64,000 nucleotides of DNA from a virus (Duplodnaviria; Caudoviricetes): the IMG/VR virus record IMGVR_UViG_3300031420_000495, positions 96,001 through 160,000 of that record. One strand, 5' to 3'. The number at the start of each line of letters is the position of its first letter. The first letter of the stretch is position 1. The translations under genes and the position numbers were made by a program. Of this stretch, positions 2,237 through 61,329 are shown piece after piece. The notes under the pieces were generated by a model. That model saw only the letters and a program-made list of their open reading frames with translations, made no database searches and was not told where the DNA came from.

Positions 2237-2265
2237 ATTATACACGCTTCTGACAAACGTGTACA
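2237..2265 (-). promoter_or_regulatory. Promoter TGTACA-N17-TATAAT
   Basis: Read directly; member of a 10-copy motif family. Confidence 0.75.
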
Positions 2266-2270
2266 GCTAT

Positions 2271-2630
2271 TTAAGGAAAATCTACATGAGGAGGATTCGC
2301 CATGGTTCTCGCTGTGTTTTCGGACCAACGAAAGTTGATTTGCTGACAAGCATTCCTCCCCACCATCAAAGCAGCTTGTTTGTTATCCGGAGACCGTTGA
2401 TAAAGTTTTGCTAAGGCATTACCACTTGCTGCCATTTGGGTTTTATCGACGGCAAGCTTTTGTACTTCTCTCGCTGCATCGTTGTGTCCGAGCATCATGT
2501 GGTAAGCTGCGCAATATCCGACTTGAATGTCATGTATTCGTTGCTGACTTCGCTCCAATCTTTGCTGTGGTGATTCGTTGGCAAATGCTGATGCTGAAAG
2601 AACTAATGCAATGAAAGCAAGTTTATACAT
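2271..2630 (-). CDS. Secreted/periplasmic hypothetical protein
   Basis: Start at MYKLAFIALVLSASAFA (Sec signal, AFA cleavage site), RBS GGAG. Confidence 0.65.
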   Translation of the reverse strand: MYKLAFIALVLSASAFANESPQQRLERSQQRIHDIQVGYCAAYHMMLGHNDAAREVQKLAVDKTQMAASGNALAKLYQRSPDNKQAALMVGRNACQQINFRWSENTARTMANPPHVDFP

Positions 2631-2641
2631 GACTCCCTCCT

Positions 2642-2839
2642 TTAGGGATAGTCGTAAGCGTTCTTCGGACCCTTGCACTCGATGATTACTTCGTGCTCAG
2701 GGTCTTTCAGAATTTTGTTGACCTCTCGCTTTATGCGAGTTCTTTGTTGTTTGGTTGATTCGAGAATCCAACCGCCATTGAGCCAGCTTGGGCGATCTTT
2801 GCGGTTCTTCGGTTTACGTGAATGATTGCTTCGTGACAC
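2642..2839 (-). CDS. Small basic hypothetical protein
   Basis: GTG start with AGGAG RBS. Confidence 0.55.
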   Translation of the reverse strand: MSRSNHSRKPKNRKDRPSWLNGGWILESTKQQRTRIKREVNKILKDPEHEVIIECKGPKNAYDYP

Positions 2840-2900
2840 GATGTGCTCCTTGGTTGTGGGAAACACAATCGCGTCGTCTTTTGTTTGTAAGCGTACGTTT

Positions 2901-5181: not shown

Positions 5182-5187
5182 TATTTA
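5182..5187 (-). promoter_or_regulatory. T4-type late promoter TAAATA upstream of GH1-RmlD
   Basis: TAAATA about 30 nt upstream of the ATG. Confidence 0.55.
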
Positions 5188-6790: not shown

Positions 6791-6811
6791 AATCCCGCGC
6801 ATGGCGGGATT
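6791..6811. terminator. Intrinsic terminator
   Basis: AATCCCGC-GCATG-GCGGGATT with a T6 tract on the minus strand. Confidence 0.8.
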
Positions 6812-6834: not shown

Positions 6835-7200
6835 TTATTCGTGTCGGTATGATTCGTCAGTGCGATCGTACTCGGCGAGCTTCAGTGCTTTCTCTTCGGG
6901 CAGATGTTTGTAGATATGCGTTTGAATGTCGAGCACGAACATGTTGAGTCGATCGCAGGCATCTTTCAGATTGCCTGCGTCGATGAAAGCTTCGATCTTG
7001 TCGACTTCGGATTTCCAGACGAATTCTTTGACGAACGGCGCAAGGTCTTCCGGCTCGTAGCTTTCCAGATCGGAATCGAACTGCACGAGGTCTTCAGCAA
7101 CAGCGATGTCGGTCAGACCCATGAAGGTGTGACCGTTGTCGATTGCGTTCTGCATGGCTTCGAATACCAGCGCTTTGATTTGTTCGTCGAGCAGCAGCAT
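6835..7200 (-). CDS. Hypothetical protein
   Basis: 121 aa acidic ORF with GGAG RBS. Confidence 0.7.
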   Translation of the reverse strand: MLLLDEQIKALVFEAMQNAIDNGHTFMGLTDIAVAEDLVQFDSDLESYEPEDLAPFVKEFVWKSEVDKIEAFIDAGNLKDACDRLNMFVLDIQTHIYKHLPEEKALKLAEYDRTDESYRHE

Positions 7201-7224: not shown

Positions 7225-7253
7225 ATTATACCACTAGCTCGAAAGAAAGTACA
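7225..7253 (-). promoter_or_regulatory. Promoter TGTACT-N17-TATAAT
   Basis: Read directly. Confidence 0.75.
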
Positions 7254-9410: not shown

Positions 9411-10126
9411 TATTCTTCTCCGTTGATTTGCGGAAGCACAAGCAGCGTATGGCCGTTTGCTTTCGCAGTTAGTGACCCTGCTTCTCCAAGCACGATCGTG
9501 ATTTCCTCTGAGTTTTTACAGGCCGCATCGAGGACGTCAACGAGGATACTAGCAACATACGTTTGAACAATGGAATCTTCGTCTTCAACAAACTCAACTT
9601 CCTTCGCGAGTTCGATGTCGAAACGATCATTGGCTGCATCCGAGCATTCCAGTTTGACAACACCGGCTCGCGAGATTTGGATGACGATGTCTTCGGCACC
9701 CAGAGTCTTCACTGCCTTGTTGGCTTGCTGTACTTCAGTTTTGGAGAACGTGATGACCGCAACTGGTTGATCTTCATTCACCTTCGGATACGTCATCAAG
9801 TTGGCCGACGTGCAGCGGAACTGCACTTTGGTTTTGCCCGATGAAATTGTGAGCATGCTCACATCTCCAGCATCATTCGCCTTGCCTTCGATTTCGACAG
9901 GACCTGAGAAGATATTTAGTCTCTTTTCAAGCTCACTTACTCGGCCAATGCCGATACGGAGGTCTGGAGAGATGGACAACTTTGCCTCGGTCAAGATGGC
10001 AGAGTTCAGTGATGGTGGCGCACCGCGTGCGAGCCCTTCGTGGATAACGACGCCATCCACTCCGACCAGCTTGCATGCGGAGAGGATTGACTTCAGTTCG
10101 ACGATGTCAGTTTGGATAGTTTTCAT
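9410..10126 (-). CDS. DNA polymerase sliding clamp (gp45-like)
   Basis: 238 aa alternating beta/alpha pattern, FRCTSANLMTYP segment; adjacent to DNA polymerase. Confidence 0.7.
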   Translation of the reverse strand: MKTIQTDIVELKSILSACKLVGVDGVVIHEGLARGAPPSLNSAILTEAKLSISPDLRIGIGRVSELEKRLNIFSGPVEIEGKANDAGDVSMLTISSGKTKVQFRCTSANLMTYPKVNEDQPVAVITFSKTEVQQANKAVKTLGAEDIVIQISRAGVVKLECSDAANDRFDIELAKEVEFVEDEDSIVQTYVASILVDVLDAACKNSEEITIVLGEAGSLTAKANGHTLLVLPQINGEE

Positions 10127-10143
10127 TTGGCTATTATATCTTG

Positions 10144-21608: not shown

Positions 21609-22448
21609 TTACCCTTTGTTGTTGAAGCGCGAACGCTCTTGCATCCGTTCCTCGAGTGTCAGGTGCCGGCCAGTGCGTTCGGTGTAGTCCGCGGCCGGAT
21701 CGTAGTGGGTCGTCTGCTCGATGCTGGACTTGCGGCCGATTGCAGTGGCTCGCATTGTATCCATTTCGTGAATGACTTCTTCTTCTTCCTCGGCGCTGTA
21801 TTTGCCGTATTCATCGTCAGGCACACCGAACCGGGTGTTGACGTACGAGATGACGTGCTGCACAGTGAAGAGGCGTTCAGCATCGCGATCCGAGATTTCG
21901 AACTCGAACTCGTCTTCGACGGCCATGCACAGCTCGACCAGGTCCAGCGAGTCGGCGCCGAGGTCTTCCACTAGTCGCGCATCACGCACGACATCGCTTC
22001 GTGCCAGGCCAAGTTGCTCCTGGATGATCTTCATGCATCGTTGCGTGATGTCATGAGATTCGCCAGTCGGTTTGGCAGTTTCGGATGCGGTCTCGTCTTC
22101 TTGGGCCTGTGCTGCGATGCGAGCTTGGTCGCCGCTCTGCACCGTAGCCCACTTCGAGTTCTTGCGTTCGAACTCGGACAGGAACAGTTCCAGCACTTGC
22201 TTCTTGGAAAGTTCCGGATGCGCGTCGACCAGGATGGCCAGTGCACATTGTACCACGTCGGCGACTTCGCCGGACAGCGGTTCCTTCATCACTTTGTGCG
22301 TGATGTAGCCTTGATGGATGTTGACACACTCGGCGAGTTCGCCGACTTCTTCCATCAGCTTGCCCAGCTTGGCGCCGAGTGGTTTGATGTCGGTACCGGA
22401 CAGACGATGGACATCGCCGAATGATTGTGCGAACGTTTGTGTTTTCAT
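21609..22448 (-). CDS. MazG-like NTP pyrophosphohydrolase fused to acyl carrier protein (ACP)
   Basis: KLMEEVGELAE..EVADV (MazG); IIQEQLG..LVEDLGADSLDLVELCMAVEDEFEFEISDRDAERLFTVQHVISYV (ACP, DSL serine). Confidence 0.9.
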   Translation of the reverse strand: MKTQTFAQSFGDVHRLSGTDIKPLGAKLGKLMEEVGELAECVNIHQGYITHKVMKEPLSGEVADVVQCALAILVDAHPELSKKQVLELFLSEFERKNSKWATVQSGDQARIAAQAQEDETASETAKPTGESHDITQRCMKIIQEQLGLARSDVVRDARLVEDLGADSLDLVELCMAVEDEFEFEISDRDAERLFTVQHVISYVNTRFGVPDDEYGKYSAEEEEEVIHEMDTMRATAIGRKSSIEQTTHYDPAADYTERTGRHLTLEERMQERSRFNNKG

Positions 22449-23437: not shown

Positions 23438-23671
23438 TCAGATCAACGTGAGGTCAGCAGCATCGACTGCAGTGCCCATGTCCTTGAACACTGCATCCGG
23501 CAGCTTGCGATGATCGCACATCACGCTTACCAGATTCATGTCTTCGATGACGCCGGTCACGGTTGCGGTAACAACCTTGCCAGCCATATTTTCGCAGCGA
23601 GCAGCTTTGCCGCGAATTTTGAACTTGACACGTTGACCTACCTTGCATTCTGCGAGCGTTGCCATCTTCAT
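23438..23671 (-). CDS. Small SH3/KOW-like hypothetical protein
   Basis: CKVGQRVKFK beta-barrel pattern; first gene after the promoter at 23696. Confidence 0.6.
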   Translation of the reverse strand: MKMATLAECKVGQRVKFKIRGKAARCENMAGKVVTATVTGVIEDMNLVSVMCDHRKLPDAVFKDMGTAVDAADLTLI

Positions 23672-23695: not shown

Positions 23696-23724
23696 ATTAT
23701 ACCCGCATCACTCCAATATGCACA
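23696..23724 (-). promoter_or_regulatory. Promoter TGTGCA-N17-TATAAT
   Basis: Read directly. Confidence 0.78.
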
Positions 23725-24491: not shown

Positions 24492-26003
24492 TTAGGCGAT
24501 GTTGGCCAGTGCGATACGCTTCCAGATACGTTCTTCACGACCGCTGTTTGCGACTTGCACGATGTTCAGCAGCGAGCGAGTCGTGATTTCGTTGGCCATG
24601 TCGCGGTTCTCGTACAAGAAATCGTAGGCTTTCTGCTTGACTTCCATCGAGACACCCGGAGCAAAATCATCGCTCGGCAAAATCTGACGCATACGCTCGA
24701 ACGTTTCTTCGATCGTCAGCTCGATGTCAGCACGCAGCGAGCGGCTGATCAGCGGTTGCGGGAATTCTTCCGACGACACGTTCGAGATGAAGATCACGCG
24801 GCCTTCGAACAAGAAGCGCTTCGGCAGTCCGCTGTTGTCGGTGCCTTCGACATTCCACGTGATCCAACGATCTTCATCGCTGTCCAGTGCTGCTTTCAGA
24901 ATGTTCGCGCCGACTTCGTTTTTCCACGCTGCATCACAGTCATCGAGCACGACCAGCTTGCGGCGGTTTTCGAACAGCATGCGGAACAGGCCCTTTGCCG
25001 ACGAATAGCCTTTCACATAGTGGTAGTCGCCGTCAAGTTCCGGAGCCAACTGCATGTCGGTCGTGTCCATGGTGTGATACCGTTCTGCCGGAATCTGGAA
25101 CACGGTCTTCATGATCTTGCACCATTCTTTACCGTGGCCAGCTTTCACTTTCAGCGATTTAGGGAAGAGGATCGACTGAATGTGGTGGGCCATTTCGTGC
25201 GGCACGACGATGTCGTAGTATTCTTCCGGATTCTGCACAGCCAGCTTGATGTTGAACTCGTACTTGTTCAGGCCAGTCGTGAAGCGGCCGCCGCAGACGC
25301 GATCGCTCAGTTCTTTCGAAGTGTGCAGGCTCGTGAAGTCGACCTTGCTCCAGGTCAGCTCCAGTTCGTCTTCTTCTTCGTCGTCTTCATCATCTTCCAG
25401 CTCAGGCACGTCTTTCTTTTTCAGAGGCTTGATCGGCGGATGTTCTTTGTAGTATGCTTCAGCTTGACGCTTGCATTCTTTCATGCGACGCAGAATGTTG
25501 TCGGCGACGACTTGTTCTTCCGGCGTCAACGTGTACGCGATCTTCTCTGCTTCTTCAGTCGACAGCAGACCACGTTCTTTGAGTTTTTGTTTGGTGTGGA
25601 AGGTTTTGCCGAGCGAGCCGTCGCCGGTGATAATCAGCGAACGAATGCCGCTGTCAACGTCCGCGACCAGATCGACGCATTCGTCGAGCAGTTCGTAACG
25701 TTCAGCAACCGGCAGCAGATTGTTCGGCTTCAGACGAACACGCTCGCCAGCCACGAACTTCGGCGACGGAGCGAAGTTTGCCGGAGCGCCGACAGCAGGT
25801 TTCTTCGGTTCAGCAGCGGGGACGTTGTCGAAGTCGGTCACGCCGAGTTCAAGAGCACGGGCGCATTCGCCAGTGCGGAGACGTTTGATAACGTACTTGC
25901 GCGAGTTCGGACCGCCTTTGGATGCGATCAGAGTTTCGCCTTCATACTGAGCAGACCAAGTCGAGGTGGCTTCGTCGTAGCAGAGAGTAGCAAGTTTCGT
26001 CAT
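24492..26003 (-). CDS. AAA+ ATPase with an inserted SprT-like zinc metalloprotease domain
   Basis: Walker A GDGSLGKT; VVPHEMAHH..GHGKEWCKIM (SprT); Walker B LVVLDDCD; FEGRVIFISN; SRS arginine finger. Confidence 0.85.
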   Translation of the reverse strand: MTKLATLCYDEATSTWSAQYEGETLIASKGGPNSRKYVIKRLRTGECARALELGVTDFDNVPAAEPKKPAVGAPANFAPSPKFVAGERVRLKPNNLLPVAERYELLDECVDLVADVDSGIRSLIITGDGSLGKTFHTKQKLKERGLLSTEEAEKIAYTLTPEEQVVADNILRRMKECKRQAEAYYKEHPPIKPLKKKDVPELEDDEDDEEEDELELTWSKVDFTSLHTSKELSDRVCGGRFTTGLNKYEFNIKLAVQNPEEYYDIVVPHEMAHHIQSILFPKSLKVKAGHGKEWCKIMKTVFQIPAERYHTMDTTDMQLAPELDGDYHYVKGYSSAKGLFRMLFENRRKLVVLDDCDAAWKNEVGANILKAALDSDEDRWITWNVEGTDNSGLPKRFLFEGRVIFISNVSSEEFPQPLISRSLRADIELTIEETFERMRQILPSDDFAPGVSMEVKQKAYDFLYENRDMANEITTRSLLNIVQVANSGREERIWKRIALANIA

Positions 26004-26036: not shown

Positions 26037-26065
26037 ATTATACACGCGACTGCGCAATAAGCACA
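26037..26065 (-). promoter_or_regulatory. Promoter TGTGCT-N17-TATAAT
   Basis: Read directly. Confidence 0.78.
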
Positions 26066-33451: not shown

Positions 33452-33480
33452 ATTATACACGCAACCCAAACAAATGCACA
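33452..33480 (-). promoter_or_regulatory. Promoter TGTGCA-N17-TATAAT
   Basis: Read directly. Confidence 0.78.
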
Positions 33481-34060: not shown

Positions 34061-34089
34061 ATTATACTTCGATCCGGAGAAAATGTACA
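34061..34089 (-). promoter_or_regulatory. Promoter TGTACA-N17-TATAAT
   Basis: Read directly. Confidence 0.75.
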
Positions 34090-38900: not shown

Positions 38901-40895
38901 GTGCAGGTCGACCATGAATGGTGCAGTCTTTTCAGACGGACGTGATGGCGAAGTTCCGTAGTAGAACATACCGGCCGACACGTTGATTGCACGTGGGATG
39001 GTTGGGTTTTCAGTAACGATCGAACCAGAAACAAACACTGGGCCTACTGCATCGCGCAGATAGGTTTCAATGACGTTACCGTGATTCTTGATGTCAATTG
39101 TCAGCGCACCGATACTTACGATCGAATCAGCGCTTGCACTTGCACGACCAAGGTGGATGGTCGTGTAGTTGTCCGTCATCGTTGCCGATGTCAGAACAGC
39201 TCCATTCTTGTTGACGTACACATACGTCGATTCACCAGGTGCAAGAGTGATAGTGGTTGCTGGCCATGAAACACGAGTGACGTTACCATCCTTGCGGAGA
39301 TAACCAGCACCGGCAGTTACAGCTACAGTTCGGCCACCAGCTGGCGTAAGATCGCCGCCTTCGAGAAGACCCAGTGGTGCAGTCTCGATGATGAGGTCAG
39401 TTACGTCTGTCAACAGCGATTGTGTTGCGCCAAGATTCAGTTTACCGACGATGTTGATACCCTGGACCAGTGGGTCCAGATACATGATCGAAATTTCATC
39501 GGAAGCTGAGTATACTTTCGAAGCGGCGGCAATACCTTGGAATGCACCATGGCATTCTGGATGTTCGATGCGAAGGTCGGTTGTGTTGGATTCAAGACCG
39601 ATCGTGTAGCAGTTGAGCATCGGCGGTGCGCCGGCGTTCTCAACCCAGATTGCGGTTTCAAAACCACGGAACGTCGTGCCAACTGTACGGAATGTACCAC
39701 CGTCACGCAGGTGGATACCTGTTCCGTTTGGTGCGCCTGATGAAGTGCGGAACAACGAACCCATGATGACAGCTTCAGCACCTGTACCAGAAATGTAACC
39801 GAACTTGGTTGCATACGGTGGAAGCGATCCACGTGTCGTGCACGAACGCATCAACAGACGTGCGGTACCGCCGTTTGTCGATTCGACATAGAAACCGATG
39901 TCATACGGCTGCGATCCACCGAATTGGCAATTCGACATGTAAAGTGCGGTATAGCTGCCGGAAGATGATACTGTAACGTTGCGGGCATTGCGACCGAAGC
40001 GAACAGCTTCGACGAAGAACGAACGCGTGACCTGGTTCATCTCTGCGTTGTCGAAACGAATCGCGCTTGCGTTAGGTCCGTATGAATCGCCAAGAGCAAT
40101 GTTCTCGATCGACGAGTCGATAACGGCCAGGATCAGGTCAGCATTTGGATTCAGCGAGTGTACGATTACAGAAGTTGAATTGTCACCAACAACCGAAACG
40201 TAACGTTTCATCTGAATTGGGTTGTCTTCGTAATACGAACCGCCCGCCACTTTGATGACGTAACGATTCTCTACAGCAGCATCGGTGATGCTTGCGATTG
40301 CAGCTTTGATCGAGGCGAACTGGCCTGGACCTGGATTCTTTTGAACAATGAGAGTGTTCTTCGTGCTGAGACGAAGATCGCGTTCGCGTACGAACGATTC
40401 CCATTCTCCAGCGACAGCACCTTCAAACTGTGCTGTTTCAGAGTTGAAACGCATCTTGCCAGGGCCGGCAGTTGGACGCTGCGCAGTCGTTCCAGATGTC
40501 AGTGTGATCGCACCTGTTCCTGGCAACACAATGTTGTCAGCAAGTCCGATACTAAATTTACCTCCTGCACCGCCGTCGATTGTGACGACCTGATTTGCGG
40601 TTCCAACTACTTGACGTGAAGATGCACGAAGCGGGCCTTCATCTTCGCTGGTCAACAGAGAAATGTTGAAACGTTCGTCAGTATACGAAACAGCATCGGT
40701 GATACCGTATGCAGAGATAGTCGTTGGATTTTCGCCATGGATGACGCGACCCTGTTCATTGACAGTGACACGTGTATAAGTACCACCACCAACCCCGGTA
40801 GGATTCAATTGTTCATCAGTAACCGCGGCTGGCGCGATGTCTTCCGTCTCGATGGTGAAGTCGAGAATTTGCTTACCTGGAATGTGTGTCTTCAC
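35943..40895 (-). CDS. Long tail fibre protein (1650 aa) with beta-helix-like domain and repeats
   Basis: GTY..VT....GRV..G..PTTL.GYGITDA repeated four times plus a partial fifth; DLAA.E.L.T.G.AVR.G.DTWATR repeated three times; TAAATA at about 40954. Confidence 0.85.
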   Translation of the reverse strand: MKTHIPGKQILDFTIETEDIAPAAVTDEQLNPTGVGGGTYTRVTVNEQGRVIHGENPTTISAYGITDAVSYTDERFNISLLTSEDEGPLRASSRQVVGTANQVVTIDGGAGGKFSIGLADNIVLPGTGAITLTSGTTAQRPTAGPGKMRFNSETAQFEGAVAGEWESFVRERDLRLSTKNTLIVQKNPGPGQFASIKAAIASITDAAVENRYVIKVAGGSYYEDNPIQMKRYVSVVGDNSTSVIVHSLNPNADLILAVIDSSIENIALGDSYGPNASAIRFDNAEMNQVTRSFFVEAVRFGRNARNVTVSSSGSYTALYMSNCQFGGSQPYDIGFYVESTNGGTARLLMRSCTTRGSLPPYATKFGYISGTGAEAVIMGSLFRTSSGAPNGTGIHLRDGGTFRTVGTTFRGFETAIWVENAGAPPMLNCYTIGLESNTTDLRIEHPECHGAFQGIAAASKVYSASDEISIMYLDPLVQGINIVGKLNLGATQSLLTDVTDLIIETAPLGLLEGGDLTPAGGRTVAVTAGAGYLRKDGNVTRVSWPATTITLAPGESTYVYVNKNGAVLTSATMTDNYTTIHLGRASASADSIVSIGALTIDIKNHGNVIETYLRDAVGPVFVSGSIVTENPTIPRAINVSAGMFYYGTSPSRPSEKTAPFMVDLHRAGGQVASTFVQQVPNDTIDNGTDLVPMTPGYYTKHALYTVSEGPFQTYYLSHGQVEYATEDEARTAPIPVPRVAPDATPAIAALVMRQGVDSIIEILDIRPMFMRAIQGTSGGTLHHGDLLGLEDDDHPQYMLATGQRALTGDLNLGGNDITNLDEINGIRFNAHGSRHTPNGADPIPTGPAITLTAASANTTGVTNFLARADHTHQITGFQPVNAELTALTAITGAGLAVHGHSADQTTHVWLTRSIQGAGGRINVTNGDAQAGNPTIDLAPAGTAGTYAQVTTDTFGRVTSGSATLDWTSITNAPSTLSGYGITDAQFKDDLLTTLADLNGNGIFVITGESTATTRSLIGPAAGVIVTNGSGVGGNPTISLGNDLAAVENLATTGFAVRAGTDTWATRSITTPNDGLVTTNGTGVGGNVIIGLEKDLAALEALTTIGFAVRTGADAWATRTLTGASGNIVITTGAGSTADPVINLATVGTPGTYGLVTTDTFGRVVSGTRPTTLVGYGITDAVSSSQVGAVNGIATLGSDGKLTSSQLPALAITDTFVVASQAAMLTIAGAEVGDVAVRTDLNRSFILRAPGANVLANWQELLTPTDAVLSVNGQTGVVNINTGVMSISAAAPTAGLTITGGTITSTGTLTFALANDLAAVEGLATNGIAVRTAADTWATRAITAGTGITITNGDGIAGNPTISLPSVGTAGTFRSVTTDAQGRVTAGTNPTTLAGYGITDAVNVSNVTSANTASTVVGRDASGNFSAGTITAALNGNASTATLAANATKLATARTINGVAFDGTADITVPTNLTDVVAAGTYDRVTVNTKGIVTGGDVTTDRMNLMYSGSIASQSGTSTIPLTATSAPTTSQGTQLVSQVITPASTASRIIIEFSGIIDTSFNGGVFLSFFRGTTCIGAVVSATQAAAGSSTVSMPETFSVRIIDTPGVTTSQTYSIRIGGNAAGTWYLGRTSGLSIGGVSRSHWSMTEII

Positions 40896-45853: not shown

Positions 45854-46942
45854 TTACACCGCCATATCGAGTTTGATGGATTCTTGTGGATCGTAGTCAA
45901 CGAGTGCGTGGATGTCGTCCATGCGGAACCCGTCGATTTCGGTGATGCTCGTGTTCAGCGACAGCTTCGGCGGCATCGATGGAACGCGCTCGAGTTGTTG
46001 CTCTGCACCTTCCAGGTGATTCTTGTAGATGTGCGTGTCGCCCAGGTTCATGATGAGACGGCCGACAGACAGGTTGCAGACTTGCGCGAGCATGTGAGTC
46101 AGTAGAGCGTAGGACGCAATGTTGAACGGCAGACCGAGCATCGTGTCGATCGAACGCATGTACACGCTGCAGGACAGACGACCTTTCTCGACGAAGAACT
46201 GTGCCATCATATGGCAAGGTGGCAAAGCCATCTTGTCGATTTCACCGACGTTGAATGCGGTGATCAGCATCCGACGATCGGTTGGATTTTCTTTCAGTTT
46301 CTTGACCAGCTCGGCAACTTGGTCGACGGCCGAACGTTCGTAAACGTCCATGCTCATGATATTAGATTCAGCTTTGTTCAGCGTGTATTTCGGCCAGTGT
46401 CGCCATTGGAATCCGTAAATGTGACCAACGTGTCCTGGATAGTTTGCCTTTGGTTTCCAGTAGTCTGCATTCGCGTTATCGGTCCAGATTGTTTTCTTCG
46501 AATCATCGCGAGTCCCATGAAGTATTTCGCACAGGCGACGTTCATCGTCCGATCCTTCGAGGAACCAGATCAGTTCAGACTTGACGGCTTTCCACGCCAG
46601 CTTCTTCGTGGTGACTGCTGGAAAACCTTTCTGCAGGTCGATGTCCAGGTGCTTGCCGAAAATTGCACGGGTACCCACGCCGGTACGGTCGATGCGATCA
46701 TCGCCTTCTTCCAGGATTTCGCGGATGAGGTCGAGGTACTGCCATTCCCACGTATCGCTACGTGACTCGAACAGACCCGGCATTGCGGTTTCGAGCTGAT
46801 CGATCAGGCCGGCGAACATGTTGTTCAGTGCACTACCGTTGCCATGCTCACCTTCGCGAGCAGCGAAGGCAGCAGACAGTTCTTCGGCTTCTTGCATCGC
46901 AGCAATGGTTGTTTCATTCGGCACTTTGTTTTCTTCAGACAT
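45854..46942 (-). CDS. thyA: Thymidylate synthase
   Basis: DRTGVGT, YGFQWR, ALPPCH, MRSID..LGLPFNIASY, DTHIY. Confidence 0.97.
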   Translation of the reverse strand: MSEENKVPNETTIAAMQEAEELSAAFAAREGEHGNGSALNNMFAGLIDQLETAMPGLFESRSDTWEWQYLDLIREILEEGDDRIDRTGVGTRAIFGKHLDIDLQKGFPAVTTKKLAWKAVKSELIWFLEGSDDERRLCEILHGTRDDSKKTIWTDNANADYWKPKANYPGHVGHIYGFQWRHWPKYTLNKAESNIMSMDVYERSAVDQVAELVKKLKENPTDRRMLITAFNVGEIDKMALPPCHMMAQFFVEKGRLSCSVYMRSIDTMLGLPFNIASYALLTHMLAQVCNLSVGRLIMNLGDTHIYKNHLEGAEQQLERVPSMPPKLSLNTSITEIDGFRMDDIHALVDYDPQESIKLDMAV

Positions 46943-49134: not shown

Positions 49135-50517
49135 TCATTCCTCGTATTTGAACGCTTTCAGCTCGCGCTTGTACATCGCGTCGGCCGTGTCGGCTTTCAG
49201 GCTGGCCAAGTATTCCTTCAGGTCGACCAGCTTCTTTTCCAGCTCGGCGATCTTGTCCTTGGTCAGGTTCCAGATTTGCATGGATAGCAAACGATCGTAG
49301 TCGGCGAACTTGTTCTGCAGCAGGATTTCGATCAGCTCTTTCTTCGCGGTATCGCGGAACACTTTCATGTTGGCGAGATAGTAGCGGATGAAGCGGATGA
49401 CTTCGCTCTGGAAACGAATTGCTTCGGTCGTGTCGGTAATCAACTTCTGACGACGAACTTCGTAGAAGCTGAGACGCCATGGCACGTACATTTCGATGAC
49501 GGCTTCGGCCGAGTCGTAGCGGAACAGCTTGCCTTCAGGATTCCACATCGTGAAGTTCTCGGTGTCGACCGCGACCAGCTTGAATTTCTTCAGCAGCTCT
49601 TCTTCCGGCAGGACGGTAGTCGAGCGCGGAACTTTGACGGTGAACTCGAATGCTTCTTCAGTCGATGCATCCTGGTAATCGTTGATGAACTCCTCTTCTT
49701 CGAGCTTGTTCAGATGCTCTTTGTATTGGTCGAGGAATGTGCCGATCGGCAGCTCGGTGATCTTGATCGTGGTTGTGTTGACGACCTGCAGCTTGCCGGT
49801 CATGACGACGCGGCCGGTTTCTTTCTGACGTTCAACAGTACCGTGGAAACCACGGAACCAAGGCACGAGCGTACCCGGCTTCAGTTTCTTGCCGTCGAGA
49901 ACTTTCAGCACTGCATCGCGGATTTGTTCCGGATGATAGGACTTGATTTCGCACGAGTGGCCGGTGCCGATACCAGTTGCACCGTTGATCAGCGCGATCG
50001 GAAGGATTGGCAGATAGAACTTTGGCTCGATCTGCTCGCCATCGACTTCGTGATGTTCCAGAATCGCGTCATCTTCTTTCTTGAAAAGCTGACGGAAATA
50101 CTTGGACATGTACGTGTTGATGTAACGACCTGCGCCGGCTTCTTTCGTCAGACGCGAACCGAACTGGCCTTCAGGCACGAACAGGTTCATGTTGTTCGCA
50201 CCTGGATAGCGAGTTGCAGCAAGGCCGACGATGGTCGACATCATCGATGTGGCGCCATGGTGGTAGTCGGTCTTTTGCGCGATGTACGAAGCGAGACGTT
50301 CGACTTGCAGTTCGCCGGCGTTTTCGCCGCGGTCGAGCGTACCATAGATTGCTTTACGCTGCGATGGCTTCAGACCGTCGCATGCAGGAATGGAACGCAC
50401 GTTGTCATACAGCGAGAACGTCTTGAACGCGGAGTTGAAGAAGTTGCTGACGCGGATGGACTGGCGCGTTGTGCTCCCGTAGTTCGGGACTTTGGTGACA
50501 GGTTTTTTAGTTTTCAT
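49135..50517 (-). CDS. DNA topoisomerase II, GyrA/gp52-like subunit
   Basis: DGLKPSQRK, YHHG, GRY catalytic tyrosine, GIGTG. Confidence 0.95.
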   Translation of the reverse strand: MKTKKPVTKVPNYGSTTRQSIRVSNFFNSAFKTFSLYDNVRSIPACDGLKPSQRKAIYGTLDRGENAGELQVERLASYIAQKTDYHHGATSMMSTIVGLAATRYPGANNMNLFVPEGQFGSRLTKEAGAGRYINTYMSKYFRQLFKKEDDAILEHHEVDGEQIEPKFYLPILPIALINGATGIGTGHSCEIKSYHPEQIRDAVLKVLDGKKLKPGTLVPWFRGFHGTVERQKETGRVVMTGKLQVVNTTTIKITELPIGTFLDQYKEHLNKLEEEEFINDYQDASTEEAFEFTVKVPRSTTVLPEEELLKKFKLVAVDTENFTMWNPEGKLFRYDSAEAVIEMYVPWRLSFYEVRRQKLITDTTEAIRFQSEVIRFIRYYLANMKVFRDTAKKELIEILLQNKFADYDRLLSMQIWNLTKDKIAELEKKLVDLKEYLASLKADTADAMYKRELKAFKYEE

Positions 50518-50529
50518 GTGTCCATTTTA

Positions 50530-51257: not shown

Positions 51258-51587
51258 TTAAAGTTGGGTGGCAATGAATGCCCAGACAAATTTACAGCTC
51301 AGGTGAATCGCTTGGTCCACGTGCAAAGAGATTTTGTTCTCGCACTTGAACCAATCAGTAATTCCGTGAATGACGGTCTCGGCTATTGCAAGCCAGAGCG
51401 AACCAGTCAAGAAGAGAACAAATCCTCCGTGAATGATCGCGTGCGCAGGCAATGCGTGCATCCAAAACATTTTGCCGACAGGGGTGTTGCGGTTCTTGGC
51501 CGTAGCCAAGAACTCACCCTGTAGCGGATAATCAGCTAACGCGTGGGCAAAGACCAGAGCGAATAGCAGTGTTGCGAAGTCCATCAT
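51258..51587 (-). CDS. DUF3307-like membrane protein
   Basis: HALADYPLQ..HAIIH..HGITDWFK..DQAIH. Confidence 0.75.
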   Translation of the reverse strand: MMDFATLLFALVFAHALADYPLQGEFLATAKNRNTPVGKMFWMHALPAHAIIHGGFVLFLTGSLWLAIAETVIHGITDWFKCENKISLHVDQAIHLSCKFVWAFIATQL

Positions 51588-51803
51588 TTCTCTAACTCTT
51601 CCAAACGTTTCAGCGCAGCTTCAAGCTGTTCAGTCAGTATTGCATTCGCTTCACGCTCAGATGCGAGCGTGGCGATTGCTTCGTGATTGACCAGTTCAAT
51701 CGCTTTGTAGTTGTTTATCTCAGCGCGCAGATATACCATCTGCGCTTCGAGCGACTTAACCAAACTAGCGTATGCACTGCAGCGTTTGCAAGGTGAGGTC
51801 ATT
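51584..51803 (-). CDS. Coiled-coil hypothetical protein (start uncertain)
   Basis: ORF after the promoter at 51801. Confidence 0.5.
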
Positions 51804-51829
51804 ATACACGAGTTCCTTAGGATTGCACA
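51801..51829 (-). promoter_or_regulatory. Promoter TGTGCA-N17-TATAAT
   Basis: Read directly; overlaps the topoisomerase stop. Confidence 0.7.
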
Positions 51830-53805
51830 ATGAATTCTTCGAAGTCCGCAGCCGGAGTTTCCAGCCACGATTTGCGGTCATCAGCACGCGAGCTGTTGAA
51901 AGCCAGATCGATTGCTTGCTTGTCTTCTTCGTCTTCCATCGTGACCTTGAACAGATACTTGTCCAGGTTCTCGAGGAACGCGGCAAACTGCGGGGTCTTC
52001 CAGGACGACAGGCCTTTGTAATACTTCATCGACCATTTCAGCTTCGCGCCAGCACTGGCTTCCCATTCGCGGAATTCGCGTTCGGTGAAGAACTCGAGTT
52101 CGGTCTTGTCCTTCAGCGTGACCAGAATAACCGGCGTACGCAGAATGTGGACGAAGCCCATGTCGAACAGTTCAGGCCAGAAGTGATCGATGACGTTCAT
52201 CAACAGACCACAGATGTGGAATCCGTCGACGTCGGCGTCAGCTGCAACCGCCAGCTTACCGAAGCGCAGTTCAGACAGCGAACGAACCGGCACACCGATC
52301 TGCAGGCCGATGATCGTCAGAATCTTCTGAATCTCGTTCGGCTCAACTTTCTTGCCGACCTTATCAGCTTCTTTCTTCTTGTCAAGACCCAACACACGTG
52401 CGATGTCTTTCTCGCGAACGTTCAGCGGTTTACCCTTCAGCGCGAACGAAGCGATGTACGGATTCTTGCCACGACCACCTTGAATCGACTTCGCAGCCGA
52501 ATCACCCTCTGCGAGGAACAGCACGCACTTGTGACGCTGTACGGTTTCCATTGCATCGGAGAACTTGCTGACTTTGCGTGGGTCCGCTTTGCCGAGTTCC
52601 TTGTTGTTTTTGCGCAAGTCCTTCATCAGCTCGGCTTGCTCTTTCGCTGCCGCCCAATCCAGGATCGATTGGATAATGTCCGTCTTCAGCAGCTTGGTGA
52701 TGAACTTCTCTGGGCAACGCCAGGTAGTTTTCCATTCGCTTGCCGGCGAAATCATGTTCTCTTTCGTCTGCGAACTGAAGCGCGGACGATTGATGTTGGC
52801 GCTGATGTAGATGCGCATGTGGCCACGGATGTCACCAGGCGAAACGTCGATCTTGTGTTTCTTCTTGATGGCCGCACGAACTTCATCGACGATCTGGTTG
52901 ATGCAGTAAGTGATGTGCGTACCGCCTTGATACGTTTCAACCGAGTTCACGAAGCTGATCTGCTCGAAGCCGTCGGACTTGGACACACCAACTTTCCAGT
53001 CAGGCGTATCGTCGTAGACGTATTCGTCCGTGTACATCGCGATGTAGTCGCTGAAGTCACGGGTCATGATCCGTTCGCCATTCACATAGAACTTGACTTT
53101 CGGATTTGTTGCCGCAGCATCAACAACTTTCTTGATGATCTTCAGCTTGTGGTCTTCGTCGAGCTTGTAGTGGCCAGCACTGTTGCGATCGATTTCACCC
53201 ATCTTGAAGAACGCGTAGTCAGGTGTGAACGTGATCTTCGTGTAGTTCTTGTCGTGTGCTTTGATTTTCGGATCGCTGATTTCCCGCATGCCGTTCTTGA
53301 ATTCTTGCTTCAGCAATTTCTTGCCGTCGCATGATTCGATCTTGAACGAGGTCGAGAGAACGTTGGTCAACGTCGAACCAACACCGTTCGTGCCGATCAA
53401 CTGTTGATCTTCTTCATCGTTGAAGTTCGAACCAGCTCGCAGATTGGAGAACACCGTCTCGGCAATGTACTTACCGGTTTGCGGGTGAATCTCGACAGGG
53501 ATACCGCGGCCGTTGTCTTGCACGGAGATGGAACCGTCATCGTTGATTTCGACGCGGATCGAATCGAGAACGTCAGGTGCACGGCGGCTTTCGTCGATTG
53601 CATTGTCCAGAATCTCCGAGAAGATTTTGACGAATGCTGGGATGACGCTGATTTCACGCAGCTCCATCCGTTTCGTGTCGACGTTATAGATGTATTCTTT
53701 CTGAGTTTGCACAGACGTCGAGCCGGCGTACATGCCGGTTCGTTTGCGGATGTGCTCAATCTCGTCGAGAACTTGATATGTTTGGGAGTGTGTTTTTGTA
53801 ATCAT
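51817..53805 (-). CDS. DNA topoisomerase II, GyrB/gp39+60-like subunit
   Basis: EILDNAID, DNGRGIP, GTNGVG, EGDSA, LKGKPLN, DADVDG, YYKGL. Confidence 0.96.
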   Translation of the reverse strand: MITKTHSQTYQVLDEIEHIRKRTGMYAGSTSVQTQKEYIYNVDTKRMELREISVIPAFVKIFSEILDNAIDESRRAPDVLDSIRVEINDDGSISVQDNGRGIPVEIHPQTGKYIAETVFSNLRAGSNFNDEEDQQLIGTNGVGSTLTNVLSTSFKIESCDGKKLLKQEFKNGMREISDPKIKAHDKNYTKITFTPDYAFFKMGEIDRNSAGHYKLDEDHKLKIIKKVVDAAATNPKVKFYVNGERIMTRDFSDYIAMYTDEYVYDDTPDWKVGVSKSDGFEQISFVNSVETYQGGTHITYCINQIVDEVRAAIKKKHKIDVSPGDIRGHMRIYISANINRPRFSSQTKENMISPASEWKTTWRCPEKFITKLLKTDIIQSILDWAAAKEQAELMKDLRKNNKELGKADPRKVSKFSDAMETVQRHKCVLFLAEGDSAAKSIQGGRGKNPYIASFALKGKPLNVREKDIARVLGLDKKKEADKVGKKVEPNEIQKILTIIGLQIGVPVRSLSELRFGKLAVAADADVDGFHICGLLMNVIDHFWPELFDMGFVHILRTPVILVTLKDKTELEFFTEREFREWEASAGAKLKWSMKYYKGLSSWKTPQFAAFLENLDKYLFKVTMEDEEDKQAIDLAFNSSRADDRKSWLETPAADFEEFIVQS

Positions 53806-53829
53806 TTAGGGTATTATATCACAACTGAA

Positions 53830-54039
53830 TTACGGAATGCAACGATAGCTTCGACCACAATATGACATGTCATAATCGAAATCTTCGATCGGCCCATCGT
53901 AGTTATACCCATTGCCGCATGAGCGGCAGGTAGCCCGAACACGGAGATACAGTCCGTCTGGAAGTTCAACGCTGTCTGGGTCAAATGGTTCTTTAGGTTG
54001 GACTTGATTGTCCGGATGGCGGTTGCTTGTGAGTTTCAT
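53830..54039 (-). CDS. Small zinc-finger-like protein
   Basis: CRSC..CGRSYRC. Confidence 0.55.
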   Translation of the reverse strand: MKLTSNRHPDNQVQPKEPFDPDSVELPDGLYLRVRATCRSCGNGYNYDGPIEDFDYDMSYCGRSYRCIP

Positions 54040-54277
54040 TTTCACTACCTTTGGCGTCAAGTATTGCCATGTCTGCTAACTGATCTTGTGCGTTGTCAAG
54101 TTCGTTGGAATCCAAGAGGCGATACTTGATCCACTTGGTGCCGTCTTTTATGAATGTCCAACCAACGGTTTCGCTTTCGCGGCGAAGATCGATAGCGACA
54201 TCGGGATTGATCTGTAGCAACGTCAGACCATTGAGGTCAGGTCGAAGTTGCGCAAGCGGGTCAATGATGTAGTGCAT
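53993..54277 (-). CDS. Hypothetical protein (start uncertain)
   Basis: After the promoter at 54281. Confidence 0.5.
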   Translation of the reverse strand: MHYIIDPLAQLRPDLNGLTLLQINPDVAIDLRRESETVGWTFIKDGTKWIKYRLLDSNELDNAQDQLADMAILDAKGSENETHKQPPSGQSSPT

Positions 54278-54280
54278 TTG

Positions 54281-54309
54281 ATTATACCAGAGTTGTTTCC
54301 GTGTGTACA
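54281..54309 (-). promoter_or_regulatory. Promoter TGTACA-N17-TATAAT
   Basis: Read directly. Confidence 0.72.
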
Positions 54310-54314
54310 TAAAA

Positions 54315-54338
54315 ATAAAGGACCCGAAGGTCCTTTAT
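54315..54338. terminator. Intrinsic terminator, UUCG loop
   Basis: ATAAAGGACC-CGAA-GGTCCTTTAT. Confidence 0.8.
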
Positions 54339-58425: not shown

Positions 58426-58436
58426 GTGTGCCTCGA

Positions 58437-58880
58437 TTAGAAAGGAGCCGGGGTTTGGATCAGCGTGCCGAAGCGGCTGTTGTTCAGCGACTGATTGGTC
58501 AGGCCGGCGCGAGCTTCGCGCGTGGTCACGATGCGCAGCGAGTTGTCGCTGGAGCGGCGGATGACCGTCTGGGTACCGGTGGTACGCGGCTTCATGCCGA
58601 CGATGATGGACTTGACGCCGCCGATCGTGGTTTCTTGCTTGTACAGGTCTTTGGTGTCGCGGTACTTGAGGATTTCCTGAACGTACTTCGGATCGAGACC
58701 TTCGAGCAGCGGGTCAGCGATGACGGCTTCGAGCGTGGCCTTGATCGACTCAGCGGTGTACTTGATGCCGCCCAGCTGGATCGTGATTCCGAATTCTTTT
58801 TCGACGTTAGCCAGTGCAGCGTCGATTGCTGCGCGAACGTTGGCCAGATTGTTTTTGTCGAAGGAGGTCAGTTTGGTCAT
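58437..58880 (-). CDS. Hypothetical protein
   Basis: Start MTKLTSF after the promoter at 58919. Confidence 0.7.
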   Translation of the reverse strand: MTKLTSFDKNNLANVRAAIDAALANVEKEFGITIQLGGIKYTAESIKATLEAVIADPLLEGLDPKYVQEILKYRDTKDLYKQETTIGGVKSIIVGMKPRTTGTQTVIRRSSDNSLRIVTTREARAGLTNQSLNNSRFGTLIQTPAPF

Positions 58881-58918: not shown

Positions 58919-58947
58919 ATAATACCCGAAACACCCTCACGTGCACA
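58919..58947 (-). promoter_or_regulatory. Promoter TGTGCA-N17-TATTAT
   Basis: Read directly. Confidence 0.72.
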
Positions 58948-58950
58948 CTG

Positions 58951-59400
58951 TTATTTCGCTTCTTTTGCAGCTTGTGCGTCGATTACTCGTTGACGAAGTT
59001 CGCTTGTCGAGAAATCGTGTTTGCGGCTGTTGAAGTAAAACTGCATTGGAATGTCGTGACCAGTGAATTCCTTGCCTTCATACTCGTCACCCAAAATTCG
59101 GATGTCGATTGGATAAGCCAGCAGCACGTCGCGCAAGTCTTTCTCAGTTGCGTACACGACGACTTCATCCACGTACTTGCACGCTTCAAGTTGAATGAAG
59201 CGTTCGACGACAGATTGCACTGGCTTGTTTTTGTTTGGTCGGTCGATGGTTGGATCGGTCTGCAAACCGACAATGAGGTATTCACATTGTCGCTTCGCTT
59301 CCCGAAGCATCATTACGTGCCCCGCATGAAAGAGGTCAAAACACGATGCCGTAAATCCGGTCCTAACGTGTTCGGCGGGCTTTTCCGAGAGTTTTGCCAT
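58951..59400 (-). CDS. Cytidylyltransferase, TagD (glycerol-3-phosphate) family
   Basis: FDLFHAGH (HxGH), GLQTD, ILGDEY, HDFSTSELR. Confidence 0.9.
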   Translation of the reverse strand: MAKLSEKPAEHVRTGFTASCFDLFHAGHVMMLREAKRQCEYLIVGLQTDPTIDRPNKNKPVQSVVERFIQLEACKYVDEVVVYATEKDLRDVLLAYPIDIRILGDEYEGKEFTGHDIPMQFYFNSRKHDFSTSELRQRVIDAQAAKEAK

Positions 59401-60023
59401 TTGATTCCTTCCTGAATCATGTTGATTGCTTTGTTGACATCATCGCCTGGAACTACAGCTTCCCAGACTTGCTTTGATTGCCACAGCCGTTCGTCGCCGG
59501 TGATCGACATCAAGCGGTCGCTGTGCGTCTTGACGATCTTCGCAATGCTTGCGTGCAGCTCTGCGAGTGTTTGACAGTCGAGCGCCTGCAAGTCCTGGGT
59601 GGTTCGTTCGTTGAGACGGTTGATCTTCGTCTTCTCTGGAACCGTCACGAACACCTTGAAGATGTCCCAGTTCTTGTCGCGGCAGTACTTGATGTACGAC
59701 TCGAGCCCTTGCGGTTCGAGGATGATGACCGGCGGCATGTTGCTGCGGTTTACTTTGTTTTCCATTTCGTCATGGGTCACGCCATAACGGTTACCGCGGA
59801 ACTCAGCGGTTTCGGCCAGTAGGCCTTCATGCTCGAGTCGATCAGCTTCTTCACGCGAGATGAAGTAGTAGTCGACGCCATGGACTTCGCCGGCACGCGG
59901 CTCACGAGTCGTGAAGCCGACGATACGATTCAGTCCGAGTTTTTCGAGATGTTCGATCAGATACGTCTTGCCCGAACATGTCGGTGCCGTAATCGTAATC
60001 AGTGTTGGATGGTTGAAGATCAT
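59313..60023 (-). CDS. Guanylate kinase-like protein
   Basis: APTCSGKT, FTTREPRAGEVHGVDYYF, GNRYG. Confidence 0.85.
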   Translation of the reverse strand: MIFNHPTLITITAPTCSGKTYLIEHLEKLGLNRIVGFTTREPRAGEVHGVDYYFISREEADRLEHEGLLAETAEFRGNRYGVTHDEMENKVNRSNMPPVIILEPQGLESYIKYCRDKNWDIFKVFVTVPEKTKINRLNERTTQDLQALDCQTLAELHASIAKIVKTHSDRLMSITGDERLWQSKQVWEAVVPGDDVNKAINMIQEGIKWQNSRKSPPNTLGPDLRHRVLTSFMRGT

Positions 60024-60853
60024 CGTTTGCCTTTATTGAAACCGTTCTCGAGTGAAAGCACGAGGTCGGTCATGTTCGCAGCATAGAAGCCGCACGAGTT
60101 GATGGTTCCGATTTCCACGACTTTCATTCCTTCTGGAGTCTCGCAGACGTCGAGGCACCACGCTTCATGTGGCATCCAACCATCGTTGGCCATGCTCAAT
60201 GTGATCGACGTTTGGTTGTTCTTCGTCTTCAGAATCATGTTGACGAAGCGGAACACGTGGTCATCTACATGAGGAGAATATATCACACGATCGCCGCGTT
60301 TATAAAGAGATTGCGTGACGATGCGATCTTTGACGATCCAGAAACGATACTCGGCGTAAATCTTCTTCGGCTTGCAGACTTGAATCAGCGTGTCCTTCGA
60401 CAGGCTCGTGCCGTCATCTTCTTCAAGTACGCAGACTTTCTTCTGCCACTCTTCGAACTCTGACTTGTCCATCACCGTACCTGCGAAGACTTTACTGTCT
60501 TCGATTGGACGGATGAACATGACATCTTCGGTGAAGACAGCATCTTCGAAACGGGAAACAACAGCATCAGCATTGAGCATGTACTGGCCCCAATGTTGCA
60601 TTTGCTTGTTGAAGTTCTGCGGTTCAAGATCGAATACGCCAGGACGCCAACCATTCTTTCTGGCAGCGTGACGCAATGAGTATGAACCCATGCAGATGAC
60701 GTTGTCGTCTTCAAGCACGGGTTCAGGTGTGATTTCGCCGATAAACGGGATCACTTTGTGAATCGAGTGCGGTATTTTGAACCGCACCAGAGTGTCAAGC
60801 AGCGTTTGGTACGCTGCTTCATTGAACAGATTGTCTTGGAGTATCCAGTGCAT
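60020..60853 (-). CDS. ATP-grasp domain protein (DUF4343/R2K-like)
   Basis: FIRP..KVFAG, EYRFWIV, CLDVC..KVVEI..INSCGFY. Confidence 0.8.
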   Translation of the reverse strand: MHWILQDNLFNEAAYQTLLDTLVRFKIPHSIHKVIPFIGEITPEPVLEDDNVICMGSYSLRHAARKNGWRPGVFDLEPQNFNKQMQHWGQYMLNADAVVSRFEDAVFTEDVMFIRPIEDSKVFAGTVMDKSEFEEWQKKVCVLEEDDGTSLSKDTLIQVCKPKKIYAEYRFWIVKDRIVTQSLYKRGDRVIYSPHVDDHVFRFVNMILKTKNNQTSITLSMANDGWMPHEAWCLDVCETPEGMKVVEIGTINSCGFYAANMTDLVLSLENGFNKGKR

Positions 60854-61266
60854 TATGCTTTCGCAGTCGTAGCGCGCGGACGCTTCGGCAGGACAACACC
60901 AGCGTCACGCATGTGGGCGGCATACCAACGCAGGCAGCCCACAGTGGTTTTGGCCGAAGGGAACTGATCCTTGACAGCGGCCAGGATTTCGTCGTACGAC
61001 AGGCCGGTCGCGCCATCAGCCTTGACCAGCAGGGCTTCAGCAACCGAGCGGATCGAGATTTTCTTCGGGGCGGTTTCTTTCACAACGATCTTGTTGCCGT
61101 TTTCGTCGAAGGTCTTGGCCAGGTCGATCTGCTTTTCAGCGGCGATCTTCATCAGACGCGCGACAGCTTTTGCGCGGGCGTTGAAGGTCTTGTTGGTAGC
61201 GGTGCCGCCCAGTGCGTTGATCATCGAAACCAGGGTAGCCATCGTGAAGTTGGTCAGGTTCGTCAT
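60853..61266 (-). CDS. Putative DNA-binding protein (C-terminal winged-HTH-like)
   Basis: IRSVAEALL..LSYDEILAAVKDQFP..LRWYAAHMR. Confidence 0.6.
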   Translation of the reverse strand: MTNLTNFTMATLVSMINALGGTATNKTFNARAKAVARLMKIAAEKQIDLAKTFDENGNKIVVKETAPKKISIRSVAEALLVKADGATGLSYDEILAAVKDQFPSAKTTVGCLRWYAAHMRDAGVVLPKRPRATTAKA

Positions 61267-61300
61267 TTTCGTTTACTCCGTAGTGTTTGTCGATGGATTC

Positions 61301-61329
61301 ATTATACATGAAACCCATTACGGAGCACA
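61301..61329 (-). promoter_or_regulatory. Promoter TGTGCT-N17-TATAAT
   Basis: Read directly. Confidence 0.75.

Follow-up and report, generated by a model that had tools for sequence, protein, structure and literature searches.

The early promoters of the T4-type phages T4, RB69, RB49, 44RR, and Aeh1 shared the element GTTTAC at -36 to -31, a UP-like tract rich in A from -44 to -40, GT-rich sequence on the 5' side of -12, and C-rich sequence from -3 to -1, and many of their copies lay 5' of novel open reading frames (ORFs) (Nolan et al. 2006, PMC1524935). The T4 early promoters were very strong UP/-35/TGn/-10 promoters used at once by the host polymerase, and some of them were further stimulated by the injected ADP-ribosyltransferase Alt (Hinton 2010, PMC2988021); RB49, phi1, and other T4-like phages additionally carried promoter-early stem-loop (PeSL) cassettes (Arbiol et al. 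2010, PMC2839356; Comeau et al. 2014, PMC4122927). The sequence comparison presented here was applied to ten promoter-like sites with the pattern TGTRCW–N17–TATWAT, located in a stretch of 64,000 nucleotides (nt) (the window, i.e., bases 96,001–160,000 of the single 257,406-bp virus contig IMGVR_UViG_3300031420_000495, hereafter G000, with 51% G+C). G000, as judged from its proteins (see below), was an uncultured jumbo phage of 257 kb and a distant relative of T4. With a probability of roughly 0.6, the ten sites would belong to a T4-type early promoter class that has a lineage-specific -35 and is read by the host sigma70 polymerase.

An exact pattern search of the window returned exactly ten matches to TGTRCW–N17–TATWAT, compared to 0.01 expected from 100 dinucleotide shuffles, and all ten were on the minus strand; since this strand carried every large ORF of the window, the ten sites were co-oriented with the genes. 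The search reproduced the coordinates listed in an earlier note on this DNA (the initial annotation), together with its four hexamers (TGTACA, TGTGCA, TGTGCT, and TGTACT), its invariable 17-nt spacer, and its -10, which was TATAAT at every site except 58919 (TATTAT). The CATC box that the initial annotation had placed downstream of five sites was also present, but the count had to be corrected: six sites (2237, 23696, 26037, 33452, 58919, and 61301) had CATC with its A as the 7th nt past the -10, and CATC was displaced at site 54281.

A genome-wide motif search, as proposed in the initial annotation, extended the class across the entire contig. The strict TGTRCW–TATWAT pattern was found 23 times at spacer 17 and three times at spacer 16, with zero matches at spacers 14, 15, and 18–20, and a position matrix derived from the sites gave 30 matches at a score of at least 14 and 33 at a score of at least 12, compared to 0 in shuffled genomes; additional matrix matches had the variant hexamers TGTGTT, TATGCA, TTTGCA, GTTGCA, and TTTACA. 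Each site was co-oriented with its downstream gene, and the -10 of most sites was located 23–38 nt before a start codon with a GGAG-type ribosome-binding site.

The consensus, taken from the information profile of an alignment of 23 G000 sites, displayed the following organization: (i) an A-rich tract at -44 to -39, i.e., 4–9 nt upstream of the hexamer, with A or A/T in most sites and one position being A in 20 of 23, and then a weak GC; (ii) the hexamer TGT(G/A)C(A/T) at -35 to -30; (iii) an unconserved spacer turning G/T-rich near its end; (iv) G at -13 in 21/23 sites, followed by TATAAT in 22/23; and (v) five variable bases, often with C or G first, and then C-A-T-C-(A/G)-A-C. The A of CATC, with a C before it, was the seventh base past the -10. 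The sigma70 RNA polymerase normally initiates at about this seventh base, and the A of CATC is hence the predicted +1.

When the 90-nt regions before 378 crude gene calls of G000 were analyzed for enriched words, two dominated, GTATAAT and (A)TAAATA, the latter being found 20–40 nt before start codons and corresponding to the T4-type late promoter motif. TTGAC–N16–18–TATAAT was found nowhere in the contig, and none of its six TTGACA–N16–18–TAnnnT sites was near a gene. Near gene starts, TATAAT occurred in exact form 49 times; about 27 of these boxes had TGTRCW or a one-base variant at 16–17 nt, and no common -35 was found among the remaining ones. Because a canonical TTGACA class was lacking and the only common -35 was TGTRCW, this motif represented the phage's -35/-10 class rather than a subclass. 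The distinct class proposed in the initial annotation was thus upheld as a coherent and non-random entity separate from the TAAATA late promoters, but it was not one among several sigma70-like classes.

The window itself harbored 14 late-type TAAATA boxes (e.g., at 5187, 31440, 40959, 42386, and 55638), located 20–60 nt upstream of start codons, and the genes preceded by them included those for ClpP, a GH1-RmlD fusion, and a 1,650-amino-acid (aa) ORF at 35943–40895 that had no Pfam match. These boxes lay in the replication region, and late genes were therefore interleaved with early ones there.

The motif was then compared among relatives of G000: G001 (IMGVR_UViG_3300045996_002337; 349,660 bp), reached via its SprT protein (68% identity); G002 and G003 (the latter being IMGVR_UViG_3300047445_000186), with DNA polymerases 64% identical to that of G000; and the Ralstonia jumbo phage RsoM2USA, whose DNA polymerase was 44% identical, with XacN1 and the Rak2/121Q group being less similar. 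The strict pattern matched G001 at 19 sites, each of which lay on the gene strand and had TGTAC(A/T), and allowing spacer 16 and TAnAnT raised this to about 44 sites (compared to 4 in the control). RsoM2USA contained eight strict TGTAC(A/T)–N16/17–TATAAT sites compared to 0.5 expected (regular-expression count with shuffle control), all located 16–74 nt upstream of same-strand genes and one having CATCAAC plus GGAG exactly as in G000; the G000 position matrix had no match in RsoM2USA or G003, so the evidence from RsoM2USA rests on this simpler count. The SprT orthologue retained its TGTACA promoter in both G001 (31 nt upstream) and RsoM2USA (71 nt upstream). Across the lineage, the -10 and the start box were stable, while the upstream element drifted in sequence and, in G003, also in position. 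No prior description of TGTACA early promoters, or of RsoM2USA promoters, was found in the literature.

If the class is of the T4 early type, the host sigma70 RNA polymerase would read the sites as soon as infection occurs, with no need for phage proteins to be made first. Each site would then act as a very strong promoter of four parts, namely the UP-like A-rich tract (contacted by the alpha subunit), TGTRCW, G-13 plus TATAAT, and the CATC start box, and in its -35, the T4 early element (G)TTTAC(A/T) would take a lineage-specific form. Such promoters would launch small host-takeover genes, with read-through reaching genes of nucleotide metabolism and RNA repair. We infer the early timing, the host sigma70 as reader, and the +1 position from the sequences compared.

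Five sets of observations weighed against this T4-type early assignment: (i) TGTGCA matched TTGACA at only three of six positions and missed T-34 and G-33, the most conserved ones, yet it was almost invariant, and because a weak, merely tolerated -35 should drift and TGTRCW did not, something would select the exact sequence; (ii) G002 and G003 did not use the TGTRCW motif (one strict site each), and the early-type sites of G003 were GTTACA–N20–TACAAT–N5–CATCGACAA, frequently accompanied by another GTTACA, 30 nt from the -10, or by TGTAAC in inverted orientation at 39 nt, a spacing hard to reconcile with sigma region 4; (iii) a distal GTTACA was found 9 nt upstream of TGTACA in about nine of 43 G001 sites; (iv) the sites at genome positions 157329 and 170559 shared the spacer too and that at 15520 shared their leader, so that the similarity among sites came partly from recent cassette duplication; and (v) two of the ten window sites, 51801 and 54281, had awkward gene geometry. 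The G003 arrangement was exemplified by the sites at 46553, 123382, 286546, and 62971 (loci L066–L082), in which the start box CATCGACAA was conserved, and G003 sometimes had TTTACA at 18 nt; the G001 sites with distal GTTACA included those at 116039, 117200, and 301954, and the SprT promoter was among them.

A dedicated factor that replaces or assists sigma region 4 at TGTRCW and at the GTTACA arrays, in the style of MotA/AsiA but at the normal -35 distance, would account for several of these observations. Its role could fall to a phage protein that enters the cell along with the DNA, to an early activator or a sigma-remodeling pair that has escaped recognition, or to a regulator of the host, of the winged-helix response-regulator type, that has been hijacked. 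Such a factor is unlikely, although it would explain why the hexamer was near-invariant despite being non-consensus, why TATAAT sites near genes had either a near-exact TGTRCW or no -35, and why the motif persisted in phages of different sources, including a Ralstonia phage. The presence in G003 of two to three GTTACA copies, which took either orientation and were spaced 20, 30, and 39 nt from the -10, and that of the distal GTTACA in G001 likewise argue for it, since such arrays are typical of protein-binding sites and not of a sigma70 -35. On the other side, with their strict 16–17-nt spacing, perfect -10, and A-rich tract, the sites had the look of sigma70 promoters, and G000 itself lacked any distal GTTACA element. 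In addition, there were no TTGACA promoters near genes, so nothing earlier was visible from which an activator could be expressed.

The searches for such a factor gave no candidate. The Pfam models MotCF (MotA C-terminal domain) and AsiA had no match in G000 even at E <= 10, although the MotA N-terminal model was not searched and the record was estimated to be 71% complete; Sigma70_r4 and ADPrib_exo_Tox likewise had no match in G000, and the only sigma-like ORF of G000 (172 aa) contained region 2 alone, like T4 gp55. The winged helix-turn-helix (wHTH)-like protein at 60853–61266, named in the initial annotation as a possible reader of TGTRCW, was rejected, since it had no tblastn homologue at E <= 1 in G001, G003, or RsoM2USA, two of which shared the motif. 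To our knowledge, none of the CRP half-sites, LexA boxes, and PhoB/OmpR boxes fits the element, which in G000 was present as a single copy with no partner half-site. A factor that is present at infection, whether virion-delivered or host-borrowed, and whose specificity drifts between sister phages (TGTGCA, TGTACA, and GTTACA) is a doubtful proposition; if it were true, a widespread lineage of jumbo phages would have a new way of appropriating early promoters.

The uniformity of the sites could alternatively come mainly from recombinational copying of a mobile promoter cassette, the -35 being inherited rather than individually selected, as cassette spread by recombination was proposed for the PeSLs of RB49 and phi1 (PMC2839356). 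The shared spacer and leader of 157329 and 170559 and the shared leader of 15520 fit such copying, as do the PeSL-like terminator-plus-promoter units at 54281 and at several G001 sites and the mostly poorly conserved small ORFs that came first downstream. We regard it as improbable, because in the information profile the spacers and flanks of most sites were unrelated while the -35, -10, and +1 blocks were fixed, which indicates selection on those blocks, and because the promoter upstream of SprT was kept across 32–68% protein identity; moreover, cassette spread explains origin and not function and is compatible with the early-promoter assignment. The cassette of promoter plus leader at 61301–61329 recurred twice in the genome, at positions 170559 and 15520. 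Of the three copies, the 61301 site and 170559 shared the spacer and the leader (catcgac..aacactacggag), and 15520 shared the leader, which points to copying in the manner of PeSLs.

The sigma70 region 4.2 and its TTGACA preference are conserved across proteobacteria, and this counted against a host whose housekeeping sigma itself prefers TGTRCW. That the phage simply copies the promoters of such a host, as in the unusual host sigma region 4 considered by the initial annotation, would agree with the lack of TTGACA promoters in G000, whose DNA came from phyllosphere metagenomes, but it is very improbable, since RsoM2USA, a phage of Ralstonia solanacearum, had the same TGTAC[AT]–N16/17–TATAAT sites, the relatives G002 and G003 used another upstream element, and the T4 early consensus can differ from that of its host (PMC1524935).

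The TGTRCW class of G000 was further characterized by predicted pairing of the untranscribed part of many sites with the leader and its ribosome-binding site. In about one-third to one-half of the sites, an untranscribed stretch (in the spacer, in the -10, or immediately 3' of the -10) was complementary to the ribosome-binding site, so that RNA arriving from upstream should be poorly translated, and RNA begun at the site's own promoter would be translated well. Folding predictions gave a spacer-to-leader duplex with z < -2 relative to shuffled spacers at 12 of 26 sites genome-wide (34061, 58919, and 61301 in the window). When predicted accessibility was compared between read-through RNA and self-initiated RNA, strong masking confined to read-through RNA was found at eight of 27 sites, compared to 7% of control genes (Mann-Whitney p = 9e-5). 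Strong pairing was found at four window sites: (i) at 33452, the spacer tttgtttgggttg paired with the leader caacccaacaaa in an obvious 12-bp pairing; (ii) at 34061, the spacer ttttctccgga paired with tctggagaaaa, covering the ribosome-binding site, whose probability of being unpaired was 0.02 on RNA arriving by read-through, compared to 0.60 on RNA started at the promoter itself; (iii) at 58919, a 15-bp inverted repeat (cgtgagggtgtttcg / cgaaacactctcacg) flanked the -10, with a duplex of -29 kcal/mol and z = -5.1; and (iv) at 61301, the spacer ctccgta paired with tacggag at the ribosome-binding site. For sites 7225 and 23696, the predicted pairing partner of the ribosome-binding site (GGAGG at 7225, on read-through RNA) was the -10 together with the bases that directly follow.

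The genes behind the promoters (Table 1) supported only part of the claim in the initial annotation that the class drives only orphan genes. The first gene had no Pfam or functional PHROG assignment at nine of the ten sites (e.g., the 203-aa ORF 1567–2178 behind site 2237, which had no family match), the exception being SprT. The operons, however, also held enzymes: the 61301 operon comprised the 137-aa ORF and the genes for an ATP-grasp protein (60020–60853) and a kinase (59313–60023), the 33452 operon consisted of the 125-aa ORF and then a T4-type RNA ligase gene (31862–33043), and the 23696 operon extended through small ORFs down to a MazG-ACP gene (21609–22448). Furthermore, the G001 gene for the topoisomerase large subunit had TGTACG–N17–TATAAT, and the class was therefore not confined to orphan genes. 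Two units looked monocistronic: that of 7225, in which a hairpin plus T-run resembling a terminator lay near 6792, behind the 121-aa ORF, and that of 26037, in which SprT was followed by a strong terminator near 24447. An enrichment of orphans among first genes was also considered and rejected, as their conservation in G001 (7/25) was not significantly below that of other small genes (89/245; p = 0.5).

The two motif-perfect sites with atypical surroundings differed in layout. Site 51801 overlapped the topoisomerase stop, its -10 overlapped the ATG (51802) of a 72-aa ORF, and the next clear gene, encoding a DUF3307 membrane protein (51258–51587), was 213 nt downstream. At site 54281, the only plausible start codons were within the site or 3 nt past the -10, and the intrinsic terminator at about 54310–54337 (ggaccttcgggtcc plus T-run) formed a PeSL-like terminator-plus-promoter unit with the site.

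A further set of promoters was predicted to be leaderless. At nine ORFs of at least 60 aa genome-wide, the ATG lacked a ribosome-binding site and had TAnAAT at a distance of exactly 6 nt (7 nt in two cases) upstream, while each of the other TAnAAT-to-ATG gaps from 3 to 12 nt occurred at most once. This layout was kept in all seven genes with G001 orthologues (7/7), and G003 had at least 13 cases. Four members in the window are listed in Table 1, including the topoisomerase site 53803, whose upstream hexamer was TTGCAT at 18 nt, and the site before the 335-aa gene called primase in the initial annotation. The promoter-like sites of core genes noted in that annotation had this leaderless geometry. 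The A of the ATG in the leaderless set sat where the A of CATC sits, and some of these sites carried a TGTRCW -35, which indirectly supports the predicted +1.

Table 1. Predicted promoters in the window, with the genes that they would drive
Feature	Position	Strand	Description
Early-type promoter	2237..2265	-	TGTACA 2260-2265, TATAAT 2237-2242, then CATC; predicted +1 at about 2230
Early-type promoter	7225..7253	-	TGTACT + TATAAT; would drive 121-aa ORF 6835-7200
Early-type promoter	23696..23724	-	TGTGCA + TATAAT + CATCAAC; would drive 75-aa ORF 23438-23665
Early-type promoter	26037..26065	-	TGTGCT + TATAAT; would drive SprT-like 503-aa gene 24492-26003
Early-type promoter	33452..33480	-	Top match to class matrix; would drive 125-aa ORF 33045-33422
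Early-type promoter	34061..34089	-	TGTACA, without CATC; would drive 92-aa ORF 33753-34031
Atypical, motif-perfect site	51801..51829	-	-35 within 3' end of topoisomerase large-subunit gene; without CATC
Atypical, motif-perfect site	54281..54309	-	Directly 3' of intrinsic terminator; downstream ORF 53993-54310, start ambiguous
Early-type promoter	58919..58947	-	TGTGCA + TATTAT + CATC; would drive 147-aa ORF 58437-58880
Early-type promoter	61301..61329	-	TGTGCT + TATAAT + CATCGAC; would drive 137-aa ORF 60853-61266
Leaderless promoter (predicted)	1528..1542	-	GTTATAAT 6 nt before ATG (1530), 335-aa gene 523-1530
Leaderless promoter (predicted)	10124..10138	-	TATAAT 6 nt before ATG (10126), 238-aa gene downstream of DNA polymerase gene
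Leaderless promoter (predicted)	50515..50529	-	TAAAAT 6 nt before ATG (50517), topoisomerase A-like subunit
Separate-class promoter	53803..53818	-	TATAAT 53813-53818, 7 nt before ATG (53805), topoisomerase large subunit; leaderless predicted

The proteins encoded in the window included a family B DNA polymerase, both T4-type topoisomerase II subunits, the SprT-like protein, the GH1-RmlD fusion, a 5'-3' exonuclease, PhoH, a T4-type RNA ligase, MazG-ACP, ClpP, thymidylate synthase, DnaJ, a nucleotide kinase, and an ATP-grasp enzyme. The DNA was fully contained in only two phyllosphere metagenome runs, from which it may originate, and there was no RNA run among those listed. Megablast of 12 kb against GenBank phages gave no close relative, and a DNA-polymerase scan found no related locus in bacterial genomes and hence gave no host clue. 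The thymidylate-synthase-family protein (45854–46942) had a 67-residue N-terminal extension; were it a hydroxymethylase instead of a plain ThyA, DNA modification could bear on promoter recognition.

The T4-type early assignment would provide a model of early promoters that can be put to use in a little-studied branch of T4-related jumbo phages, composed of G000, its 350-kb relative, and RsoM2USA. Together, the TGTRCW class, the TAAATA late class, and the leaderless set would make it possible to draw up a temporal map of these genomes for the first time. The assignment would also mean that the T4 habit of a host-divergent early -35 extends deep into the jumbo relatives, with the element having drifted from one sister phage to another (TGTGCA, TGTACA, and GTTACA); this drift would be a natural experiment on the selection of a conserved non-consensus -35, with RsoM2USA being cultured. 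For phage biology generally, the result is incremental and involves no new mechanism.

The comparison with known systems was applied to T4 middle promoters, PeSLs, nested T4 promoters, and T4-type early promoters. The MotA box of T4 middle promoters, TGCTT, is centered at -30, 11–13 nt from the -10. The G000 sites resembled middle promoters in combining a phage-specific upstream element with a sigma70 -10, but this element was at the canonical -35 distance, 16–17 nt from the -10, and the MotA-box pattern TnTGCTTnA was found only twice near G000 gene starts. The analogy to MotA/AsiA middle promoters drawn in the initial annotation was accordingly abandoned: the spacing was 17 nt rather than 11–13 nt, the MotA C-terminal domain and AsiA were undetected with the Pfam models, and the T4 early promoters gave the better fit.

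The G000 class and the PeSLs shared repeated strong promoters of the early type, an AT-rich tract upstream of the -35, a preferential location beside ORFans, evidence of cassette duplication, and some promoters directly after a terminator hairpin (54281 and several sites in G001). They displayed the following differences: (i) PeSL promoters match the Escherichia coli sigma70 consensus, while TGTRCW in G000 does not, and G000 had no TTGACA near genes; (ii) the PeSL stem-loop is a GC-rich upstream terminator, which was found at only one (54281) of the ten window sites and at a minority of the G001 sites; and (iii) the recurrent G000 structure was instead a predicted hairpin bracketing the -10 and reaching the ribosome-binding site.

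In the T4 genes e, soc, 49, and I-TevI, a promoter is nested in a hairpin that sequesters the ribosome-binding site, and both arms are present only in RNA from upstream. A subset of the G000 sites would have the same arrangement, with the promoter within the hairpin and the ribosome-binding site predicted to be masked only on RNA from upstream; the nested T4 promoters, however, are late or middle ones in a handful of genes, whereas those of G000 would be of the early type and serve many genes.

The T4-type early promoters differed from the G000 class as follows: -34 was G instead of T and G was allowed at -32 in G000, making its hexamer a variant and not an exact match; G000 lacked TG at -15/-14; its start box CATC(A/G)AC was strongly conserved; one-third to one-half of its sites were within predicted hairpins masking the ribosome-binding site; and no Alt homologue was found by Pfam in G000. 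A scan of the T4 genome gave TTTAC(A/T)–N17–(GG)TATAAT in the same register as in G000, with the -10 reading GGTATAAT or GTATAAT. At -35 to -30, TGTRCW and TTTACW had T-35, T-33, C-31, and W-30 in common, and the two classes further shared the A-rich tract, the 17-nt spacer, a near-perfect TATAAT preceded by G or GT, the C-rich -3 to -1, numerous gene-oriented copies frequently located 5' of novel small ORFs, and the coexistence with a gp55-type late class.

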